A stretch of DNA of 64,000 bases, from positions 186,001 through 250,000 of the forward strand of contig OX597832.1 in the NCBI GenBank assembly GCA_951406725.2, read 5' to 3'. Each line of letters starts with the position of its first letter. The first letter of the stretch is position 1. Origin of the DNA: Octopus vulgaris (taxonomy: Eukaryota). A program made the translations under genes and the position numbers. The notes under the pieces were generated by a model. That model was not told the DNA's origin, did no database searches, and worked only from the letters and a program-made list of their open reading frames with translations. Below are positions 7,961 to 64,000 of the stretch, piece by piece.

Positions 7961-8711
7961 TTTTTAGGGGCCAAACATCAAAATAATTCTCTGTCTTATG
8001 TTTGTACCAATTATTTTATTTCCTTTTCTTATTGTTTTTCTTCAATGAGTCATTTTAAAAAAAATTTTTAAACTTTAATTTCAGGCTTTAATCTTAAGCT
8101 TTTGCTCCAAAGGACTGTAACTGTCAACTTATCTTTGCTGCAGTTGTTAATCATGTAACTTTTCAACTCTTACTTTTTGGAGAAAGAAATATGGATAAAA
8201 TCGTGGATGGGAAATGACCCTGAAAAGGAAGATGGTCATTTTAGGGGAATATTCTCATCAGTTATTAAATTTAATGTTGGATATTAATATATAGGATTTT
8301 GATAAGCTGAGTATCTTCTTAAATATTTTTTAATTGCAGCAGTTAATTTAGAGCTTAATGAGTTCTAACAAAACCTATTAACTAAATAGATAAAGTTGTC
8401 AAATACTAATGTTTGAATGTTAAAATTTATTTTTCAAATCATTCTGCTATAGCGTTAATTAGCTGTATCTTGAATATTATTCAAATGTGCATATGTCTTC
8501 CTTGTCATATCCCATATTGCTAGTACCCCTCGACCTCAGTAGATACTTATTAAATACACAGTGATTTCTAGGCAAAACTAACAGACCAAGAATAGAGCTG
8601 AACTTTTGAAGTCTTCATTGATAAGGTAAGTTATACTTGTATATTTTTATTTGAAAGAAACTTCAAGAATATTTAAATGGCTATTTATTTTTTTCCTTGA
8701 GCTTATTTATT

Positions 8712-9420
8712 TCATCATCATCATCATCGTTTAACGTCCATTTTCCATGCTAGTATGGGTTGGACAGTTCGACCGGGGTCTGGGAGGCCAGGAGGCTGCA
8801 CCAGGCTCCAGTCTGATCTGGATGCCCTTCCCAACGCCAACCACTCCGTGAGTGTGGCGGGTGCTTTTTACGTGCCACCGGCACAGGCCAGAGGAGGCTG
8901 GCAATGGACACAATCGGTTGGTGCTTTTTATGTGCCAATGGCACGTACGCCATTCAAGGCGGCACTGGCATCGGTCATGTTCGGATAGTGCTCTTTTACG
9001 TGCCACCGGCATGGGTATCACAACTACAGTTTCCATTTGATTTTTATTTTGATGTTGATGTACTTGACTCAGTAGGTCTCCTCAAGCACAGCAGGTCACC
9101 CTACAATCCAAGGTTAGCACAGCAGACCATCTTGCGAGCCATGAACTCACTTCATTTGTCAGGTCTTCGCAGTCACAGCATATCTCCAGGGATCTCAGTC
9201 TTCCATCATTGCCTTTGTGAGACTCAACGTTCAAAGGTCATGCTTAACCACCTCATCCCATGCCTTCCTGGGTCTACCTCTACCCAGGATTCCTTCAACT
9301 GTTTGGGAGTGGCACTTCTTCACACATCTCTCCTCATCCATCCATAGTACATGACCATACCAACACAAACGTCTCTCCTGCATGCCACATCCGATCTACT
9401 GCATGGCACCTTGGACAAGT
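8712..9420 (-). mobile_element. RTE LINE 3' end with (GAT)n tail and gtgccaccggcac subrepeats
   Basis: catcatcatcgtttaacgtcc tail. The minus strand at ~9230-9360 encodes a degenerate WYGHV..GRGRPRK.WDEVV motif. Same family as 39885-41275. Confidence 0.8.
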
Positions 9421-9889
9421 ATCATTTTCTAAAGCCTTGGGTTGACTTAATCTTTGTGAGTGAAGTTTGGTGGACAGAAACTGTAGAGATGTCTGTCAGA
9501 TGGACTGCATTAGTAACTCAAAAGTCCAGCCTAGTCATACTCTTATAACATGCTGATTCTGGTTGAGAATTACATTAATGATACACATGTTTATGGAATA
9601 CTCAGCCACTTACATGCTAATTCAATGAGTTTGTAGTTTAGTTGATCAAACAACTGAACTATCTCTAGAAATTCTGAGATGCATTTATTTTTATTACATA
9701 TATATTTCCTAATTTTAATGGCATATTTTTTAAATACTTTTTAAGACCCACTGTTCTTTACTCTGGTTCTGTTTATTATTAACAAATTGCCTTTGCTGAC
9801 TGTCATTTTTTATTCTGTTATACTTTGCTGAGTTCTATCTCCACCCCACCACTAAAAAAGCTTGATTTAAAAAAAAACAAAAAAACCTT

Positions 9890-10830
9890 CATTTTTTTAA
9901 CTTGATCAAACTTGTCTCTTTCAAAATAGGACCATCTTCTCTTAATACACCACTCCAAATGTTTTGTCCTCCACCCATTTCCATGGGTGGTGTACAGTTT
10001 TCTTCTATCATCTGGAATTAGTAACTCTTCAGGATAACTTTCAACTTTTAGTACTAAATAAAAGTCTGCAGGAGGTAAATGCAGCAAGCAGGGTGTTAGT
10101 GACTGATAAGAATTATCATATGCTTTGTCAAAAAGGCACAGATAGAGACTGACATGTGCAGATGCATTGACTTGGTACAGCATTTAGGTTGTTTGTCCAT
10201 GCCTCAGATATCTTCCTTTGCTCTATTTCTCTCAAATGTTTCCAGGTATCTAAGTAAAGTTCTGTATTGATTATTTGACCCATGTGGAACAAACACATGA
10301 TGAATAATGAACCTCTAATCAAAATGGACATTACCATCTTTGCATATGACTGATATTAATGATAATCTGAGCCTCTGCATTGGCAACCTTTTTGTTCCTA
10401 CATTGTAGCCACATATCCATATTTTGTTTTCTGTTATAAATTTTCAAAAATTTTTCTTCAGCACTCAAACAATCAGCTTCTAACTGATCATGACTTAGTT
10501 CCCTCTGTTCACAAATTTTGTAGCCATACAATGCATCATCAGTTTTTCTTTTAAACTCATGTGGCATGAATTTCACAGATGCCTTTTTCATGGATCACAA
10601 TACATACTTTTATGACCATCATCTATTGTCTTGGAAATTCATCCAGATCCCGAATTATTTCTATGAGGTCTTCTTCCTGGTTTGGAAACATGGTACCTTG
10701 CACGTGGTTCAAACAATCTTTGCTATTGACCAGTGGCAACCTTAGAAAAATTTCCATATGTATTTTTCCAATTTGAAACATAATTTCACTCAAACACATT
10801 GCTTGAACCAAGACATTGTAAAGCCATTTT
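9890..10830 (-). mobile_element. Decayed mariner transposase remnant
   Basis: Fragments MGQIINTELYLDTWKHLRE..RKISEAW, KKASVKFMPH and LPPADFYL..K resemble mariner DD34D transposase. Confidence 0.65.
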
Positions 10831-42795: not shown

Positions 42796-44137
42796 AAATC
42801 AAAATAAGCAACAAGGATATCCAAGGTAGTGTAGTACAATCGTTTCATGTTACTTCATTGTATTAAACACTGTAAGTATTACATGATGATAATAATAATA
42901 ATAATAATATAAACAATAATAATATCAATAATATAAATGATAATAATAAAAATGTGGAAAGTGAGGAAATTAAGGAAAGATTAGTAACAAACAACCCTAT
43001 CTTACATAACAATATAATTATAGATAAGGGAAATAACACTAATGCTAGTAATAGCTCTAATAATGAAAAGGAAAACAGCTTGTTCCTAAATGATAATAAT
43101 ATCAGGAATCATCCCCCCAGTTGTAATTGTAGTATTAGATCAAAATGTCCGGTATCTGGTCGGTGTCTGGTTCAAAATGTAATTTATAAATGTACAATAA
43201 TGACTAAATAATAGCTATCTTTATTTTGGATGTTCGATAGACCTAAAAAAACGTTTGAACAATCATTTTTCTACTTTTAGACTTAAACATAGGGCGGGTT
43301 GCACAACGCTGTCCAGTAAAATTTGGGAACTGAAAGAAAAAAGAAAGGCACAACCTTATAAAAATAGTAGGGATGGATGTGAACTTTGTTCCATGGAGAC
43401 ATGAAATTTTGAAACATAGGAATAATACAAACTTATTGAATAACCCTTCTGAACTAGGAGTATCCTGTATACATTGTGCCATTTGTACTTTTAAGTATTT
43501 TTAATAATAACATTCTGACCATTCCTAAATTTTCAAATCATACTTTGTAACCAAATAAGGAATTAATATACCATACTAGCTTTTATTTAACCTGCATATA
43601 TTATTAAGAAATTTTATAATATAAATAAATTTGAATAAAGTGAAATTAGAATTTTTTGATAGTCTCCTATATGAGATTGCAAAAATTCTATATATCTTGG
43701 GAAATTATTTGGTTCATCTTGATTACCTCCCTTCCATTACTTTTTAATACATCCTGATATATGTGCTAAATTGATAGTGTTTTTTTTTTTACAGTTAGTA
43801 AATATTATGTCTAGCATGTTCCTTTAATTTAACTCGTTAATAAAATTAATCACTATTTACTAACTAACTATGATTCTATATTTTTAGAAATGGATATATA
43901 TATATATATTTATATAAATATGAAATGATTTCTATATTTTCTATCCCTATATAAGATACTAAAATTTATTGGAATCCTTTGAATTCTATGTAAAGGATAT
44001 TTATTTCAAATTCACAAGCAGAATTATGGCTGTTAAATGGTAAGGGACATTAGAAACCTCTAGAGCATTAGTAGTCTCTATTCTCCCTACCCCACTAACT
44101 TCAGCCTACTAACTTTTGCTATAATGCATTCAAATAT

Positions 44138-44719
44138 GCTGTTTAGCCCTAGGAAGCATCGATGCTTCCTGTCGGCTTCGACACATTTCCTGTGTCCTTA
44201 TATATTTACGAAGAGGAGACAAATACCCCCAAGAGCTAGGCCTGCATCTAGAGACACACATGTTTCAGGGTCTTTGCTCATCATTGGTCTAGAGTAGCAG
44301 AAGCCTGCCATCTGAAGATATCTGTCTCGACTTCGCAAATATATATATCTAATTTTCAGTGAAGTTTATTCACTGATCACCAAAATCAGAAATATTAAAT
44401 TTCTAAATATCTCATAGAGATATGTACGGTGGTGGGGCGATAGAGTGGTTGTATACTGTCAACTTAACGTGACAGTAGGGGATTACACCACCGCTGTTTA
44501 GCCCTAGGAAGCATCGATGCTTCCTGTTGGCTTCGACACATTTCCTGTGTCCTTATATATTTACAAAGGGGAAGCCGACAAGAAGCGTCGATGCTACCTA
44601 GGGCTAAACAGCGGTGGTGTAATCCCCTACTGTCATGTTAAGTTGATAGTATGCAACCACTCTATCGCCCCACCACCGTACATATCTCTATGAGATATTT
44701 AGAAATTTACTATTTCTGA
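44138..44719 (-). mobile_element. Retrozyme-like ~355-bp tandem unit with inverted tail
   Basis: Direct repeat 44138-44209 / 44493-44564. Inverted arms 44386-44534 / 44571-44719. Minus-strand hammerhead-like motif at 44247-44293. Confidence 0.75.
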
Positions 44720-53949: not shown

Positions 53950-54183
53950 TGAGCTGGCAGAATTGCTAGCACGCTGGATGAAATGCTTAGCAGTTTTTCA
54001 CCTGTCACTATATTCTGAGTTCAAATTCCACCAAGGTCAACTTTGCCTTTCATCCTTTCAGGGTTGACAAATTAATTACCAGCTGCATACTGGGGCCGAT
54101 CTAATTGACTGGCCCCTTCCCCCAAAATTTCAGATCCTGTGCCTTTAGTAGAAAGGATTATTATTATTATTATTATTATTATT
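53950..54183 (+). mobile_element. tRNA-derived SINE with (ATT)n tail
   Basis: gagctggcagaattgctagc..gagttcaaattcc..gtagaaaggattattatt. Confidence 0.8.
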
Positions 54184-54600
54184 CAGAAGTTTTATTACAT
54201 GACCAAGCGTAGCTCTGTGTGCTTTGGGTATGTGTTGTGGTTTGTTTTAGTGTTATTTTTATTTTATTTAAAGTGTTTTACATAAAATGTGTGCAGTGCT
54301 GTTTTGTGTATGTTATGTACATTTGTAAGTCCTGGTGTTTTGCTTATATATTTGTCTGTATGTTTTTTAACCATGCCTTATGTATTGATTATTATAGGGA
54401 TTATCTACGTCTTCACGTCCTACAATCAGGTTATATATATTTCCAGATCTTTGTATTTTGAGAGTTTCTCTGTTTTGTTTAGAGACATTAGAGACATATT
54501 GTCATCAGTTGCAGTTGATATGTCGATTAGAAGGCAAGATTTTTCTTGGTGGTCACCATCAACAATATTTGGGCTATCATCATCATCATCACTTTCTCTT
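54184..54600 (-). mobile_element. Second R4/Dong-like 3' fragment
   Basis: PNIVDGDHQEKSCLLIDISTATDDN..EKLSKYKDLEI; starts at an (ATT)n tail. Confidence 0.8.
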
Positions 54601-54779
54601 AATATTGTTTCATTTAACAATCCCCGATGAGTGTCAACCAGATATCTAGGAAAAGTAGTATCATGTAATAGTGGCATTTCACAGCACACTGTAGCCATAA
54701 AAGGATATAAAAGAAAGGAAACTCAGTATTTCAAAGATAAAAATGTGAACTGTGCTTTTGAGGATGATTGTTTTGAATT

Positions 54780-57155
54780 TCATAAATGTTAGGTTTACCA
54801 GTCTGTTTTCAAGAAACTAATTTTCACCTTTGTTTATAACACTAAGTGTACCAATTACAATTGTTTGTGTCTTCAATTACCATATTCAGCTAATCTCGAT
54901 TTTTAGGTTTTTGTTCGCTTCACAAGTTTAGATGATTCATTTTTGTCAGGTGGTATAATCATGTCAATGAAGAGGCATGTTTTATTTTTCATATCTTTAA
55001 CAATAAAATTAGGCTGATTGGCATTTATTGTGTGGTCTGTATAGACTGTAAAATCCCATAAAATTGTTGCATCTCTTACTTCAGTTACTGATGGGAGAGG
55101 GTGTTCATACCAGTTTTTAACATATCCCCCACCAACATTTACCAGGAGCTAAGGTGGAGCATCCTGAAACTAAATGTCTATTGTCTAGAATTGTTTGTCA
55201 CAATTTCTACATTTTGAGTCTGTTCCATTTTGGGGGATGTTTTTTGGAAGTTAACTTGTAAATGAGCTCTGTTCTTGAGCAGCTTGGATGAACCTCTCTA
55301 TTTTGGCTTTGCACCTTGAGCTTTGCAGCTACTGGATGGGTTTGTGGTTAGTCAACATGAACATCCTGGGTGTAAAATGTATGTGGTCAAGCAGAGGTTT
55401 TTGTTGCTATCTATTTTTCAGTTGTAATGCCTTCAGACTTTACTTTAATTCTGTGTATATATAATTCTGAATATTGCATATTTATACTATATACTTAGCA
55501 TCTAGTCATCCATAAAGAATAAGGGATTGATTCTTCTGTTGTTGTTTGTATCAGTACCCTGTGTTATTGAGTTCATTAGAAAGTGTGCTATACAAAAAGA
55601 GAAGCAAAAGAGAGTCAGTTTGAAAAATTTTGACTTTGTTTGATTGCATGATTCCATTACTATTGGTTAAAAAAAAAGATGTTTTCGATTTTGTTGTACC
55701 ATGTAGAAGAAAGTTAAAGATTACTGGAGAAATCTTGCATATTTCAAAGGCTTTAAATAGTGAGCATTGTCAAAAAAGTCATGGTAAGGCATGTTATAGG
55801 TCAAGAGTTTTTTTTCAGATGTTTTGGTTTCTGATGTTTATGGCAAGAGGTGCATTGTGCCTTTTATCAACCAGATAGGAACTTTCTCAGGATTTTGTAT
55901 CAGTGCACTCATTTCCTTGGCTGGTGCCTTGTGTGCATTCCTGTAAATGTATTTGACCAATACTTTGAGGTTTGGTCTATTCCAGGCTACTACTTCCATT
56001 TGTGTATTTTACTAAGGGCCTACTTAGTAAAGGTCTTGCTAGTGCAATTTCTACCCATTGTTATTGCTCCACATCCTTTCATTTTCCTTGTTGATCCAAC
56101 TAGCTTCCTCATCATATTCTTTTGAGTTACTCTAGATGTTCTTCCAAAATTCCTTAACTTTATTTATTTCTCTTAGTTGTTTCCCTATTTCTGTATAAAA
56201 CTTCTGTGTGCTGATTCAGAAAATTTTGTTCTGTCAATAAAAGTTACTTGTTGCACTTTGATTACTTCAAAGTATCTTTAATAGTAGGGAGACTTTATTT
56301 ATCTGTTATTTTGTATTTTCTTTTAAGTTTTATAGCATCAACAATTCTCTGCTCAGATATTTACTTTCTTTTTGTCTTTTGATTTTTCTATTTTAGTTAT
56401 TTGTTAACATGTTTATTCTTTTTCTTTAAGTCCACTTTGGTTGCTCAAAGCCTTTGCCAGAGAATATACCAGTGGGTTATTTATGATTCTTAAATCAGTT
56501 TCGCCTTCTTTTAGTATTTCTTTCATCACAGCATCATACATTTTAATCTCATATACATTTTCTTTTTTTTCTTCTTCTTCTTTGTAAAAGTAGGTGTGCT
56601 TTCATCTATTGTTTTCTTCCATTTAGCATATGTATATTTAGTGAAATTATGTTATGGTTTATTCAGTGTTTTGTAAAAGGCTTTCATTATTTCCTTATAT
56701 TCCTGTCTTACTCATTTCTGCTTTATATTATAATTTCTGGTGTTATTTTGTAGTGGTTATTTCAACAGTTCCTAGTTGTAGGCCTGGGGAGGGGGAATGT
56801 TTCTGATTACGATTTAGACTATTATTTTAGAATTTTTCTCCAGAAGCCCATTTTACGATCCCGTCCAGGTGCACCCCTAGGGGACATGTCCCTGAATAGC
56901 CCACAAAATAGACTAAAGTGGTATGGTCTGTGTCATTTAGACATTTACCTGATATTTGGGGTTCTACTTTATCCTTACTGGAAAAGACAGTTCGTGCTAC
57001 CACACTTGACAGACTTACTTAAAGAAGCTCAGAGGGGTCTGTCTTCCCTGGGTTCAACACTAATTTCATACCTCACAGCTATAATAGAAAAGAAAGACAG
57101 ACTGTCTAGTACAAGTTTACCTGATGAGGCTCAGAAAGGCTTCGCCACCATTGTC
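54780..57155 (-). mobile_element. Third, longer R4/Dong-like remnant
   Basis: ILWDFTVYTDH..NQPNFIVKD..CLFIDMIIPPD and FIQAAQEQ..SKCRNC, with heavily decayed upstream ORF sequence. Confidence 0.7.
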
Positions 57156-57204
57156 TATGTATGTTATTTTGGAATTGCTGGCCTTGTGCCGGAATTTGAA
57201 ATCA

Positions 57205-57420
57205 TTATTATTAGAATCATTAGTATGCTGAACGAAATGCTTAGCAATATTTTGTTCATCACTACATTCTGAGTTCAAATTCCGCCACGGTTGTCTTTGC
57301 CTTTCATTCTTTCAGGATTGATAAATTAAGTACCAGTGAAACACTGGAGTCGATGTGATCAGCTAGTCCCACCCCCTTCACACCAAATTTCAGGCCTTGT
57401 GCCTTTAGTAGAAAGGATTA

Positions 57421-57455
<35 letters not shown>

Positions 57456-57920
57456 GAGGGATAGAGCAGTGTATGCCATCAAAGTGACACTAGGTAAAAT
57501 ATATGAAGCCCAGTATACCCATCATGACTACCCATCTGATAAGGGTACACCAGGCACATGCATCACAACCATATGTGCACAACATGGTGATCTCATATCA
57601 AGATAAACAGTGCATGACCTTGCAGTTAGAATTTTCTTCAGGTCGAGTAACCCAGCCCGCTCAAAAGGTCTATATCATTATTATTATCATTGAAGGTGAT
57701 GAGCTGGCAGAATTGTTAGCGCACTGGATGAAATGCTTAGTGGTATTTCACCCATTGCTTCATTCTGGGTTCAAATTCTCTGAAGGTTGACTTTGCCTTT
57801 CATCCTTTCAGGGTTGATGATATAAGTACCAGTTGAGCACTTGGGTCAATGTAATTGACTAGTCCCTTCCTTCAAAGTTTCAGACCTTGTGCCTATAGTA
57901 GAAAGGATTATTATTATTAA
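57205..57920. mobile_element. Cluster of three (ATT)n-tailed SINEs
   Basis: Plus copies at ~57205-57455 and ~57695-57920; a minus copy at 57460-57670 matches 38410-38760. Confidence 0.75.
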
Positions 57921-58467
57921 CCCTGCTACTACCATTATGAATTCTTCAAGATGTACTCTGTGGTTTCATATCTTGATAGTTTCCTCTATTTTCTCAATTA
58001 TAATGCAAGGGGAATAATACTGTCTCTTTTGGTAACCCACCCTTACACCATTTGATGCAGCTGCATTTGACTAATGTATTAATAATTGTTATATGTATGT
58101 GTGCTTGTACATTTAGTGTTATACAAGTGTTTTATTAGTATCAAACCAGTCCTTTGCCATTCTAATATCAATAAGTAGCTGCAACTATATGTAGATGATG
58201 ATGTTGAAATGCATTGTTGTGTATGAGTATTTTAACACTAGACTCATTTATTAGTTTCAGCCACCAGGAATGTAGCCATGCTGGGGCAACACCAACATTG
58301 TAAAGTACTGTTCCTAACAACTTATTCCAGTACATATTTGTATAGTTTCTACTTTTTTCTAAACCATTCACAAACATCCTTACTGAAAATAGTTTTAATT
58401 CTTTCTTGAAATTCATCCTAAACATCTAGTTTGACAAAAGATCAGTTTAGCTTATATTTATACATTA

Positions 58468-58949
58468 GAAGTATTGCATTTCTAAATCTCTCAGAGAGAG
58501 TTATGCAGTAGCATCATGGTAAAGTGATGGTTTGTTGCCAACTTAATATGTCAATCCCAGGAAAGAGAAGAATGCTACTGCTATTTAGCCCCAAGAAACA
58601 CTGCTACTCCAGACTGATGCAGAGCAACTACCCTGAAACTAGTCTCTGGTTGCTGGTTTTGTTGGGTGGAGGTGCTTATCTCCCCTGTTTGAAAACTTAA
58701 GGACACAGAACGCTTGTGTCACATAGCCAACTAGAAATGGTGTTTCTTGGGGCTAAATAGCAGTAGCATTCTTCCCTTTCCTGAAACTGCCACAATTAGG
58801 TTGGCAACAAACCATCATTTTATTGTGCTGCTACTGCATAACTCTCTTAGAGATTTAGAAATTCAATATTTCTAATTTTGTAGATCAGTGAATTTATTTC
58901 ACTTGAAATTTCATAAGTTTTCAACAGTGATCTAGCACCAACAGCTAGC
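58468..58949 (+). mobile_element. Retrozyme-like unit 1 with inverted 5' tail; hammerhead at 58609-58649
   Basis: 58468-58601 is the reverse complement of ~58739-58875. Motif ccaga-CTGATGC-agag caacta ccct-GAA-ACTAGT-C-tctgg. Confidence 0.8.
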
Positions 58950-60817
58950 GAGGCTATGCCTTTTTTGTCTGCGACATGTTGTTGGCCTCAGTTTGTTACC
59001 TGCGGTATATGAGTTCATTTCCTGTTCTGTTTATTGTAAATTTATATTATTTTGAAGTGAAATATTTTAATTGAAATTGAACTGTTGTCCTTTGAAAAAC
59101 AGTATTTTTTGCCCTGCGGGGTAAAAATATTTTCGTTTATTTTTATTGTGAACTGTGATTTTTGTGAATATATTTTCTGGAAATATTCTTGTCATTTCTG
59201 ACAAGTGTAAAGCAACAAAGTTATGGAGACCCAACCAGCCATCAGCTATGCTGCAGCAACAGGAAGGAGTTGGGATAATGATGTTTTGCAAGTTAAAGAA
59301 GTGAAGTTCAATGAGAGGAGATTGAAAAAGGTGAATGAACTTATAATTAAGGAAGGAAGTAGCCTGAGGCTGACCCTGCCAAAAGAGGTAACAGAGGAAA
59401 CAGCAAAAAAAAAAAAAAAACTGTTGTGTATAGAATATTCTCAAACTCAAGCAAGAGGGTGGAAATAGCAACCATTGAAGCAATGGAGGAGTGTCTTAAG
59501 GGTATTAAGCACTTTATGACATACTACACCAGAGGCAAGAAGTACGGCACAGTGGAGATACAGTTTGCAACCAAACAAGACACAATAAAGTGCTCCACTG
59601 TGCCATTGAGGTTGGAAGAGTGGGCACTGCTGCCAACCTACTGTGGCAAATGTGCAGCCAGAATTAAGATTGGCAGAGTGCCCCCAGAAATTGATGAAAC
59701 ATGACTGTGGCAGCCATCCTCTACAACACAGAGGAGGAGACCAATGTGCTGAAGGTAACGAGGACAACAGAGGTAAAGTGGTTTGGATACAGCTTTGAGG
59801 TGACAGTCCAAATCAGTTTGCTGGACCTGCATAAAATTGTAGATGAAATTATGTTGCCAAAGGATGTTAAATTAAAAGTAATAGTGGAGGGTAGATCTCC
59901 TATCTGCTACCACTGTGAAGTACAGGGACACATGCAAGCAAGGTGTCTCCAGAAACAAGAAGTAGAACAGGAGGAGGAGGTGGAACAAGGAGTGGTAGCA
60001 CGAAGCCAAGTAAGTGAAGAGATGGAAAATACTCAGTTGGTAAAAGAAAGAAGAAAAGAGATGAAAATGTATATTCACCACCAAAAAGCCCGCAAAAAAA
60101 GAGAAAAGCAACATAGAAGAAATACAAATTGAAAGAATAGAAATAACAAAAAAGAAAATTACAGAAGAAAAAACAATTATGCAGAAAGGAAAGGAAGCAA
60201 CAATAAAGAGTAAAAGTGGGATAGAGATGGTTGAGACACAAAAACCAGGAACATCAGGAGAGATTAGATATGGAAAACGGGAAGGAGTACCAAAAGGAAA
60301 AAAAAACGTGTGGATGATGATAGAATATAAAAAGAACATAGAAATAGAGAAATGGATCACTAAAATGAAAAATGTAATCAGAGTGAAATTGTCGGGGATG
60401 GAGCATACTGAAGATGACAGGGCAGTTTTGCTAGAGAGAGAGAAAATAGAAAGATTAAAAGAATTCTTTGGTGAACAAATTGTATTATCAGAGTTGTGGG
60501 TTCGATGCAACAAACTACCACCAGTGGTGTCATTTGAAGACATAGTGGAGTACTTAGTCAATTGAAAGTAAGTGGAATTTGTAAAATTAAAATAATGTTT
60601 TAAAAAACAAAGAACAATGAACTGTTCATGAATATGTGTTGCATAAACAGTTAAATGACAGTAGCTGCGTGTGGGGCGCAGGTAAGACATTTCAATTTTC
60701 ATTATATCATTATATTCATTCGATTTATGTTTTATGTACCCCACTGTACTGTGTTGTCTGTCTTTGTCCCTTCTTTGTAAGGGCCAATGTGCTCATAATA
60801 AAGAATAAAGCTAGCAA
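58950..60817 (+). mobile_element. ORF1-only (HAL1-like) Tx1/L1-derived element
   Basis: Frameshifted ORF1 at 59223-60565: ISYAAAT start, LKVIVEGRSPICYHCEVQGHMQARC knuckle, homologous to the ORF1 at 33546-33917. No APE or RT follows; it ends taataaagaataaa. Confidence 0.75.
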
Positions 60818-60856
60818 AGACTGATGAAGAGCAACTACCCTGAAACTAGTCTCTGG
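60818..60856 (+). ncRNA. Minimal type I hammerhead with canonical core
   Basis: aga-CTGATGA-agag caacta ccct-GAA-ACTAGT-C-tct. Palindromic stem III and GUC triplet. Confidence 0.75.
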
Positions 60857-61026
60857 TTACTGGTTTTGTTGGGTGGAGGTGCTTATCTCCTCTGTTTGAA
60901 AACTTAAGTACACAGCACTTGTGTCACATAGCCAACTAGAAACGGTGTTACTTGGGGCTAAATAGCAGTAGCATTCTTCCCTTTCCTGGGATTGCCAAAT
61001 TAAGTTGGCAACAAACATCACTTTAT
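60818..61026 (+). repeat. Retrozyme-like unit 2 (direct repeat of 58611-58822)
   Basis: Colinear ~205-bp match read directly. Confidence 0.9.
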
Positions 61027-61691
61027 ATATTTAGATGTTTTATAATTTTTTAAAATATATATATATATATGTGTGTGTTAGCATATGCACACACACACAC
61101 ACACATGTATATATACCCAGAGGAGGTAAGGTTTTATCAGACCAGAGATATGGCCTGAAAATAGGGTCAGTCGCCTTTGATGGGTCTTGACACACTTTCT
61201 GTCAAACAAATTTCATTCTCAAGGTTTTGGTCAACCCACTAGAAGACACTAAAACTAGGTGCTTCATAGTAGGATCAAACCTGAGACTGTATAGTTTGAA
61301 AGTGAACATCTTTTCCACACAGTCATGCCTACACCTATTCAGTTCCAGGCAACTCTGAAGAATATGTCTGAATTTTTACAGGATGAGTAATTATTCTTAT
61401 TATATACAGATATGTTTGGACTAGTGTCCTTGGTTGTTATAGTTGCAACATCTCAACAGTTGTACCTCCTTTCTTTAGTTACTTGTCATATTCAATTATA
61501 TTGATCCTGGAATTTCATACCAAACCCATTATTCAATCTTATAAGGTAGATTGATTTATTCTTTTATCTGTATCAGGAGTATTCTCCTATTAGTTATTCT
61601 CTTACTTGTGATGTTCTCTCCACTTGAATCCTGAGTATAGATTAACTGACCTACAACTTGAACTTGCACCAATCAGCTAAGCCAACAAACC

Positions 61692-61741
61692 TATTTGTAA
61701 GAGCTAATGTGCTCATAATAAAGAATAAAGCTAGCAAAGAC
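61692..61741 (+). mobile_element. Short 3' end of the HAL1-like element
   Basis: tttgtaagagctaatgtgctcataataaagaataaagctagcaaagac matches 60774-60821. Confidence 0.8.
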
Positions 61742-62921
61742 TTGCACCAACTTTTATTCACTATGCTATTGCTTTGTTCAAGTAGAATGAGCAAACCTCT
61801 TCAGAGGTGAGATAATAACTAATAGGAAAATATCCCTGATATGGACAATATATTAACTCCAAAGAAGGATGAACTGCGTCATAGAGGACAGAATATGAAT
61901 TAATTCTTTATAGTGAAGGCTGTTGAACAAGTTATTTGGCTGCTGGGCTCACAATATGGTAATGCATTTGATTGCTGGACTGGGCTGTGCATTGTGTCCT
62001 TGTATTTATCTTGCTCCTGTTCACTCAACTGAAAATTAGTTCCATCATCAACAGCTGGGAATTACTCTTGCAATGAAATAACGTTCCATCCTGGAGGAAT
62101 TTGCAAAGATAATAACCAACTAACATCTTGTTTCTACTATCAAAAAGCTGTTATGATAGTTTGCATCACCCATGGTCTTGAATGACTCACACATGTGCAC
62201 ACACACACAAGAATATTTACATGTCTGTAGCAAATGTTTTGGATTTAGAGCAATTCTAAAGATGTATACTTATATACAATTGGTTCACTGGTATGCTATG
62301 TAATTAGTATCATTGACTTATGATTTAATATAAATGTAACCTGATGATTTAGAAATAACCCGAGAGAGCACATAGTGTTTTGATTGTATAGAGGATTGGT
62401 GAAGTGTGGAACCTAGTTGAAATGTTCTCTGTAGGAACTGTAGTTCAGAAATATTCTGATATACTATCGATTAATTTGATTATAATTAGATTTGAACATA
62501 AAATTATTCTGGTGCTATCATTGACCTAACTGAAGAAATTTTTAATTTGGAATGCTCACACGAGTTAGATAGATCTTGTCCAGTACAATCTCATCATTTG
62601 TTGTGATCTTTTGTCATCTGTTTTAACCAGCCTCTTGTGTGTCTTCAGTGGTCTTCCTCTCTTACAGGTTCCTTTTACATGAAGTTTCTTTATTGAACTG
62701 TCATTGTCAATACACATCACATATCTATATCTAAACTGTAACCTCTCTCTCTCTTTTGTACACTGCAGCTGACACCTCTTATATCCAGTTCTTTTCTCAG
62801 TTTGTCAATATTTCAATGTTCATACACACTAACATAACACTTCCAGTGGAGTGTGCTTGTTTCATTTCTCCCCAACTAAGCATGTCTTCCTTATTCACTT
62901 CTCCATACAACATGCATCATA

Positions 62922-64000
62922 CGAGGGACGTTCAATAAGTAATGCCCCTGACCCACTTGCAGTTGTTTGAAATTTTTGCATGTGCAATTATTCACATCTC
63001 AATAGATTAAGTGGCGAATTACAGCTCTGAACTACTTGTGGTTTCTGATTTACAGGTGTTTGAACTGAGTCAAGTGTGAAATGGAACCTGTTGAGTGTCG
63101 AGCAGTGGTCCAGTTTTTGTATTTGAAAGGACACACACCACGGGAGACTTTTGATGAAATGAAAGTAACTTATGGTGATGATGCCCCATCATATGACCTT
63201 GTAAAACGAAGGCATTGTTTATTCAAACATGGTCGGAACTCTGTGGAAACAGCTCCCAGATCTGCCCCCCCCCCTTCTGCCATTGATGAGGCATCTGTCC
63301 GTCAAGTTGAGGCTGCCATTTTGGAAGATCGACGCATAACTATTCGCCAAATAGCCCATGAGGTCAAGATTAGTACCGGGTCTGTGGAAACTATCATTCA
63401 TGACCATTTGCATATGCAAAAGGTGTCTGCCAGATGGATTCCCAGGCTGCTCACACCTTTCCAGAAGCAAGAACGCGTCGAGTGCTCGAGAATGAATTTA
63501 GGGATGTGCCAAGAAGATGAGTCAAAATTTTTCAAAAGACTGATTACACAGGATGAAACCTGGGTCCATCACTATGATTCAGAGACCAAAGCCCAGTCAA
63601 TGCAGTGGAAGCACCGTGACTCACCTCCTCCAAAGAAGGCAAGGGTGCAGCCCTCCGCTGGCAAGGTCATGCTCACAGTCTTCTGGGACCAGGACGGAGT
63701 AGTGATGACAGATTTCCTGGCAAAGGGTACCACAATTACAGGAGCCTATTATCCTTCACTTTTGAGGAAATTAAGAGAAGCTATCAAAATCAAGAGGTGG
63801 GGCAAGATCAGCAAAGGCATCCTCCTCCTGCAAGACAACGCTCCGGTCCACAACTCGCATCTCGCCAGATCAGAAGTACAGGTGTGTGGCTATGAACTCC
63901 TCCCCCATCCCCCCTACTCTCCTGACCTTGCACCCTCTGATTTTCACCTCTTCCCAGCCATGAAGTTGTTTTTGAAAGGAAAGCGTTTCCCAGATGATGC
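62922..64000 (+). mobile_element. Second copy of the mariner element, running off the window
   Basis: Same TIR after TA and ATG at 63081. Highly similar to 44801-46083 but with different indels. Confidence 0.95.

Follow-up and report, generated by a model that had tools for sequence, protein, structure and literature searches.

A damaged Octopus vulgaris hammerhead repeat with a predicted snRNA-type promoter and an ORF1-only LINE at its predicted start

Analysis of a 64,000-nt stretch of the Octopus vulgaris genome (contig OX597832.1, positions 186,001 to 250,000; hereafter the window) pointed to a repeat family, termed family M, that is probably a retrozyme with an snRNA-type promoter, at whose predicted start an ORF1-only LINE has inserted, where it would be driven by that promoter. 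The region 58464-61026 is recognizable as a damaged copy of this non-coding hammerhead repeat, interrupted by a second mobile element, X (Table 1). A preceding sequence-only reading had set the insert aside, but it is the more informative part of the locus. What the analysis adds is the predicted snRNA-type promoter together with a LINE lineage and its ORF1-only dependant at the start of that promoter; the retrozyme alone belongs to a known class.

Table 1. Features of the interrupted family M copy (window coordinates)
Feature	Position	Strand	Details
Inverted 5′ piece, monomer positions 138-274 (Penelope-type 5′ inversion)	58464-58601	-	87% identical to 58740-58876
Monomer unit 1 of family M, one full period starting just 5′ of the hammerhead	58602-58956	+	
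Type I hammerhead 1	58609-58649	+	Stem I 58609-58613/58645-58649, core 58614-58620
Hammerhead 1, stem II	58621-58634	+	Followed by the palindrome at 58638-58643, with cleavage predicted after 58644
ATCAGTG, predicted snRNA-type proximal sequence element (PSE)	58884-58890	+	59 nt upstream of the LINE junction
Left copy of the 14-bp target-site duplication	58943-58956	+	58943 = predicted transcription start
Element X, putative ORF1-only non-autonomous L1/Tx1-type LINE	58957-60808	+	3′ end AATAAAGAATAA; identical ends at L061 and other loci
Broken ORF1 of X	59211-60113	+	Frameshifts and one stop
Right copy of the target duplication	60809-60817	+	Shortened by a 14-nt deletion
Type I hammerhead 2	60818-60856	+	Intact core 60821-60827, palindrome 60845-60850, stem I of 3 bp; predicted cut after 60851
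Monomer unit 2	60818-61026	+	Stops at position 221 beside AT-rich and TA-repeat DNA
49-nt copy spanning the right junction with the 3′ end of X	61694-61742	+	96% identical to 60774-60822

The two hammerheads recognized by the sequence-only reading are indeed present, each with GAAACTAGTC, in direct repeats (58611-58823 and 60818-61026) of 92.5% identity, but both are damaged. The core of hammerhead 1 reads CTGATGC, with a change to C at what we take to be the conserved core position A9, in a motif (CTGAnGA) kept by 24 of the 28 other copies (30 genome-search loci minus the window's own two). Hammerhead 2 retains three of the five stem I pairs, the 14-nt deletion at the right junction having also taken the outer part of this stem. 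The insertion, previously drawn as 58950-60817, has to be redrawn as listed in Table 1; restoring the family junction then yields a period of 355 nt for this unit, close to the 350-351 nt of uninterrupted arrays. The former figure of ~340 nt arose because the insert ends were misdrawn and because of the deletion. Nor does the tandem include 58464-58601, which is an inverted copy lying outside any tandem. The 3′ ends of the 28 copies fall at monomer positions 215-221 in 16, at 260-283 in 8, and at shorter positions in 4; unit 2 stops at the commonest of these ends and the outer end of the inverted piece coincides with the second. No ORF of 80 aa occurs on the forward strand within unit 1.

Since both ribozymes and the ORF1 are damaged, the copy at this locus is predicted to be dead. 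The inverted piece stops at monomer position 274 and the PSE sits at 282-288, so that hammerhead 1 has no PSE upstream and the sole PSE of the locus is directed into X; it would yield an X transcript ending at the weakened hammerhead 2, not a monomer. Dimer folding of both hammerheads with release of a circle of 340 nt right here, as had been suggested, is therefore very improbable: ACTAGT and GTC are kept in both motifs, yet the cuts would be 2207 nt apart, a distance that precludes release of a monomer, besides the A9 change, the 3-bp stem I, and the missing PSE. The 49-nt copy of the right X junction further downstream carries the same 14-nt deletion, has ACTTGCACCAA on both sides, and is likely a local repair patch. 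A 59-nt inverted repeat (76%; 61553-61611 and 61801-61859) brackets it.

The hammerhead motif is no chance occurrence (genome-wide, 44 matches to a 111-nt query from the 40 scored of 1498 candidates), and the intact core and GAAACTAGTC are found together in 17 of the 28 copies. Stem II pairing is kept through double changes at all four pairs in 21 sequences: 85.7% of 84 cells are paired, with 15 double changes, a figure reached by none of 500 shuffles (slid controls, 19-58%) and inflated by kinship among the sequences. Pairing of stem I extends to 93 of 105 cells, one row being mis-cut. Stem III is palindromic in 15 of 20 motifs and has one to two mismatches in the other five. This palindrome appears as three unlike sequences, ACTAGT, ACTATAGT, and ACATGCATGT, which fits the requirement of a dimer model and is the one feature that suggests dimer self-cleavage of family M. 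In Xenopus, eight of nine predicted dimers did not cleave in vitro, according to a portion of 10.64898/2026.07.22.740005. The earlier label "minimal" hammerhead gives way to canonical type I in the terms used in sections of PMC4209133. There, metazoan type I hammerheads, including those of Penelope pLTRs, have a helix I of ~6 bp, a helix II of 4 bp, and a 1-2-bp helix III whose small loop is palindromic, and are predicted to act as dimers, all as in family M; unlike the pLTR hammerheads, family M had no flanking Penelope ORF in a limited search. Rfam models returned no hammerhead in 54000-64000 at E ≤ 1, where only microsatellite-driven miRNA matches below cut-off appeared, and none in 16 loci at the gathering score, where U2 in L109 was the only match. 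The core varies among related monomers, being TTGACGA in families A and B and CCGATGA in some family E copies (L105, L107, L119, L120; L124, L131).

Uninterrupted arrays, which the sequence-only reading had proposed to look for, were found at five loci. An exact two-hammerhead pattern matched six times there and never in the reversed control, revealing dimers and one trimer (L254). Spacing was 351, 351, 351, and 350 nt at L254, L255, and L258, where the motif located at least two sites. Among the array loci, only the dimer L255 belongs to the window's own subfamily (85-88%), the others being 69-76% alike. GC of the units is 0.41-0.42. When modelled as a circle, the sister subfamily folds strongly (L254; z of -5.7 and -7.5 against 60 shuffles), but that of the window only weakly (L255; z of -1.7). 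The monomer's own tail lies directly 5′ of the hammerhead in 21 of the 28 copies, an adjoining inverted copy occurs in 7, and flanks are mostly AT-rich or TA-repeat DNA. Part of 10.1101/2021.04.23.441226 describes such partial tandems, inversions at the 5′ end, and flanks of AT repeats as marks of Penelope-like elements, and by these characters family M is classed as dispersed and non-coding, with insertion marks of the Penelope type. Measured from the predicted cut, its preferred 3′ ends lie ~180 and ~230 nt downstream, which suggests a template, such as a circle or multimer, that extended across the junction. The repeat is likely a retrozyme moved by Penelope-like enzymes, a reading that holds for the family as a known kind (dimers, trimer, palindromic stem III) but not for this copy.

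Family M resembles the metazoan non-LTR retrozymes portrayed in parts of PMC7229834 and 10.64898/2026.07.22.740005, which likewise consist of tandem units about 150-450 bp long, low in GC and free of ORFs, each with a type I hammerhead. Its units of 350-355 nt and 41-42% GC, occurring as dimers, a trimer, and many solo copies, compare with mussel units of 350-390 bp in these accounts. Unlike those retrozymes, it consists mostly of 1.x-mers, has a circular form that is presumed, and adds a predicted snRNA-type PSE and a resident LINE, both absent from the retrozyme accounts in the available text of the two sources. The main text of PMC7229834 makes no mention of octopus.

An alternative reading takes the unit for the pseudo-LTR of a coding Penelope-like element that escaped our search, with tandems as truncation products and no independent monomer RNA. 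Three Penelope proteins of this genome, one of them of 781 aa with RT and GIY-YIG, were compared with 52 loci that hold the monomer or its insertion site, 28 of which had only 1.5-kb flanks. Matches in four loci lay on the opposite strand or were truncated fragments 0.35-1.8 kb beyond the monomer end, none joined to the monomer as the start or end of an ORF. Part of what would have overturned the sequence-only reading, units that are always pLTRs of coding elements, was seen in none of the 52 loci. Conversely, among 30 GIY-YIG loci there was no case of a monomer directly downstream, and a single copy lay 1.3 kb off on the other strand; a loose hammerhead pattern found no hammerheads in these 30 loci and does not tell what those elements carry. 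Together with the monomer's own tail preceding most hammerheads and the closure of dimers and trimer on a 350-351-nt period, these results render the pseudo-LTR reading unlikely, even though the Penelope marks suit it, Xenopus retrozyme families are sisters of pLTRs (as stated in part of 10.64898/2026.07.22.740005), and the search was narrow. Given that narrowness, a coding parent Penelope element of family M may exist.

Element X, in turn, has the features of a non-autonomous LINE. In L061, which reads monomer tail, duplication, X, duplication, and hammerhead, both X ends were confirmed and its ORF1 is open over 301 aa, with a CCHC zinc knuckle. This ORF1 is 29% identical over 273 aa to that of an autonomous LINE (E = 8e-36), and the 5′ 250 nt of X are 72-74% alike to LINEs in L121 and L139. 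An ORF2 search in X gave no match at E ≤ 1, Pfam searches with the ORF pieces of the window returned nothing above cut-off, and the three protein relatives of the X ORF all came from Octopus species. With ORF1 only, its own ends and duplication, and kinship to an autonomous LINE, X can be classed as HAL1-like. HAL1, as described from mammals in part of PMC5753468, is also a LINE derivative with ORF1 only, whereas X is from octopus, belongs to an L1/Tx1-type lineage, and is site-specific. Two other assignments were discarded: the 6-mer GCTAGC as target duplication, since the true duplication is 14 bp, and X as the interior of an LTR element, at odds with its duplication, A-rich tail, and tandem stacks.

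The site preference of X was assessed by a census of its 3′ ends with a query without target DNA (30 of 40 matches examined), which replaces an earlier one left unused for specificity because its query contained target DNA. The M site with a hammerhead followed in 12 cases (window included) and the duplication with another X head in 5, so that the M site adjoined X in 17 of 30; an X head without duplication occurred once, two cases were ambiguous, and ten had another tail and other neighbors. X relatives with the tail AAAGAAAATAG or a similar one (L270, L274, L276, L281-L285, L288, L290) end next to different sequences, some of which look SINE-like by eye. Another element with an ORF1, Y, terminates at the M site as X does and is at times stacked 5′ of X (L063, L064, L084-L086, L088, L090).

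One could also regard the whole 2.56-kb stretch as a single composite element, with hammerhead terminal repeats around an ORF1 cargo, moved by the Penelope pathway. X-bearing loci L061, L062, and L070 share monomer ends with empty copies, and the head-to-head pair of L127 and L133 includes LINE and monomer. However, X has its own duplication and an A-rich tail of variable length, and X-X and LINE-X stacks are separated by one duplication, all of which points to separate insertion events and makes the composite improbable as an account of the locus. The two readings are compatible insofar as a filled unit could be re-mobilized. In that pair (G000:C4:124123300-124138700), two LINE-plus-monomer units face each other with 98.6% identity over 2.1 kb, an arrangement that may have arisen when a filled unit inserted in the inverted manner of Penelope elements.

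The autonomous kin of X use corresponding sites. A census with the 3′ part of an ORF2 remnant (30 of 41 matches examined) placed 17 LINE copies at a hammerhead monomer of five other families, 3 at the M duplication with X, 4 at U2 base 1, and 1 at a partial monomer start; 3 adjoined other DNA and 2 had no tail. The 3′ junction thus falls at a monomer, the M duplication, or U2 base 1 in 24 of 30 loci, which are partly non-independent (L107 and L117 are one inverted pair; L109, L110, and L114 one U2 cluster). In all six monomer families, the junction lies 25-26 nt 5′ of the hammerhead core. LINEs and X are inserted co-oriented with the target, with 12-17-bp duplications (seen at the 5′ end in L121, L125-L130, L133-L135, and L137), and also stacked in tandem. 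LINE occupies base 1 in 2 of 30 U2 loci, and none of 20 U1 loci has one within 1.5 kb. A search for the tail before U1 base 1 gave two matches, one by chance and one true LINE (L243), 87% alike and 5′-truncated; L242 was discarded as a U1 insertion because it is not a U1 gene. Copies ~95% or more alike at their 5′ ends occupy families A, B, and U2. All three full-length LINEs in U2 begin with the 14-bp U2 duplication followed by 12 nt that equal family B +1 to +12 with one mismatch, so that the donor RNA likely began at the +1 of a family B monomer.

L125 carries an open 1134-aa ORF2 with APE, RT, and a C-terminal zinc finger. Pfam matches of the autonomous LINE comprised PF03372, PF00078, and PF13966 above cut-off and PF00098 just below. 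The solved structure nearest to the L125 ORF2 is human L1 ORF2 (E = 7e-63), as compared with 1e-25 for R2. Named homologues of ORF2 bore no Tx1 name or clade label; we infer the label Tx1 from architecture and target specificity rather than from a tree. In L137 (oriented 8165-9900), another LINE-like element starts exactly at the predicted cut of a family A hammerhead.

The fixed LINE junction coincides with a promoter-like arrangement. ATCAG lies at -57 to -59 in all 20 U1 loci and at -57 to -61 in 27 of 30 U2 loci, two of the remaining three being LINE-filled; none of 15 U6 loci, several of which may be pseudogenes, shares the motif. A PSE matrix trained solely on U1/U2 promoters (8 promoter types) found its best site within 300 nt at -59 or -60 in six of six monomer families, whose +1 is defined by the LINE junction. 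Across these families, 0, 0, 7, 25, 5, and 0 of 2000 shuffles scored as high; two U6 control matches at -57 (5.5) outscore the site of family C (4.8). The window PSE has the best score in 300 nt, equalled by none of 2000 shuffles. Because the six families are 47-70% alike, their common PSE counts as a single inherited character rather than as six independent cases. Its spacing to the LINE junction is constant to 1 nt across targets with unlike +1 regions. Vertebrate PSEs lie ~60 bp upstream (part of PMC4494074), and newt satellite 2 has an snRNA-type promoter (Coats et al. 1994, as cited in a section of PMC2220036). We predict that the monomers carry an snRNA-type promoter, which SNAPc would bind and from which transcription would start at the LINE junction base. 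Newt satellite 2, as treated in that section of PMC2220036, resembles family M in being a tandem repeat that combines a hammerhead with a polymerase II promoter of snRNA type; it is from a different phylum and forms satellite arrays, whereas family M is dispersed and its promoter is predicted from position and motif. In the spacers of U2 genes (L214, L222, L224, L228, L233, L235-L239), ~65 nt match positions 165-233 of families A and B at 76-85%, mostly reversed, as either a monomer fragment or a shared upstream element.

These elements can be assembled into a plausible cycle. The monomer ATCAGT lies 59-60 nt before a fixed base, itself 25-26 nt before the hammerhead core, and this base would be the +1 from which RNA polymerase II transcribes through tandem units. 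Two hammerheads would then cut after pairing through their palindromic stem III, and the resulting piece of 351 nt would be closed to a circle. A putative Penelope-like reverse transcriptase may prime on this RNA ~180 or 230 nt past the cut and cross the junction, leaving the partial tandems and 5′ inversions that are observed in AT-rich DNA. Autonomous LINEs and X are inserted at this predicted +1 base, with sister copies at base 1 of U2 and U1. Such a LINE would need no promoter of its own: its RNA would start at the target +1 and carry the first 12-14 target bases as a leader. Site choice could lie with the endonuclease or with RNA ends that match the target, or could result from contact with the promoter complex.

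Among these alternatives, a plain endonuclease preference for a loose motif of U1, U2, and monomer 5′ ends, with the promoter link as a by-product, is possible, if not quite probable. The target starts are loosely similar, with A at +1 and GG around +10 to +12; 9 of 12 bases agree between family B and U2, and TACCTGG is common to family B and U1; the endonuclease is the main determinant of target choice according to part of PMC4494074, and U1 is rarely occupied. Against this stand the near-identity of the LINEs found in families A, B, and U2, the constancy of the ATCAGT spacing despite differing +1 regions, and the abundance that so short a motif would have in 2.8 Gb, where 24 of 30 copies nonetheless sit at these sites. 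We advance, tentatively and as a doubtful proposition, that this LINE lineage and its ORF1-only dependants find the target through the snRNA-type initiation complex (or captured RNA ends) rather than by endonuclease specificity, insert at +1, and live on retrozyme and U1/U2 promoters; retrozymes would then be snRNA-promoter replicons whose filled units can be re-mobilized by Penelope enzymes.

Available RNA data add little depth. Three raw runs of about 12 million reads each gave 478, 445, and 353 reads on the window and 321, 297, and 230 on the dimer L255; one contig set was also aligned. Reads were mostly <95% alike, partially aligned, and in both orientations. They indicate family-like sequence in RNA, at low depth and from diverged copies; at this depth no pile-up of ends was seen at the cut site or +1, nor any start in the paired-end reads on L255. 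Partial tandems in the genome would yield junction reads as well.

To our knowledge, little has been established about the transcription of animal retrozymes, and a PSE at the exact U1/U2 spacing offers a testable promoter and start site that ties an invertebrate family to newt satellite 2. Target-specific LINEs are thought to choose sites by their endonuclease, yet near-identical elements here occupy unlike sequences at a constant distance from a motif. A leader from the former target, together with these unlike sites, provides a natural series on how LINEs choose and switch targets, a question relevant to tools for site-specific gene insertion. Keno has its insertion site inside U2. The octopus LINE is target-specific like the Tx1-clade families covered in parts of PMC4494074 and PMC4640811 (Tx1L in Tx1D, Keno in U2, Tx1-Mar with SINEU, Kibi/Koshi), sharing with them APE-RT, a CCHC ORF1, a fixed site in multicopy targets, tandem stacks with one duplication in between, and possible transcription from flanking DNA. 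Unlike these families, it targets hammerhead monomers and the first base of U2 and of U1, and a single lineage is found at several dissimilar targets with constant spacing to a promoter motif.

Ty3 and TRE5, which target polymerase III genes, likewise insert at a set distance from the promoter of a small RNA. These elements and trypanosome Pr77 use polymerase III factors or their own promoter, whereas tethering of the octopus LINE is hypothetical. The likeness of Pr77 lies in a retroposon end bound by TBP and SNAP50 (part of PMC8190864). Retrozymes, target-specific Tx1 families, and HAL1 are already in print. For O. vulgaris, the available text of PMC13282606 counts L1-Tx1 and Penelope elements with no mention of hammerheads or snRNA, and that of PMC10886601 holds nothing on LINE targets. 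A search of abstracts and openly available literature yielded neither a retrozyme from octopus nor a LINE with hammerhead repeats or snRNA-type start sites as its target; Repbase or supplements may already describe these families.

Other elements lie elsewhere in the window. A diverged sister monomer resembling family E (44137-44424, reverse strand) contains ATCAGTG, a TA-rich box, the core variant CCAATGA, and a longer near-palindromic stem III, with a short piece in opposite orientation at 44681-44717 (forward strand). Fragments at 54426-55148 (reverse strand) resemble by eye the C-terminal end of a restriction-endonuclease-type LINE ORF, with no Pfam match. Finally, an open 310-aa frame of a mariner-type transposase (63069-63998, forward strand; Pfam Transposase_1, E = 7e-24) runs off the window.
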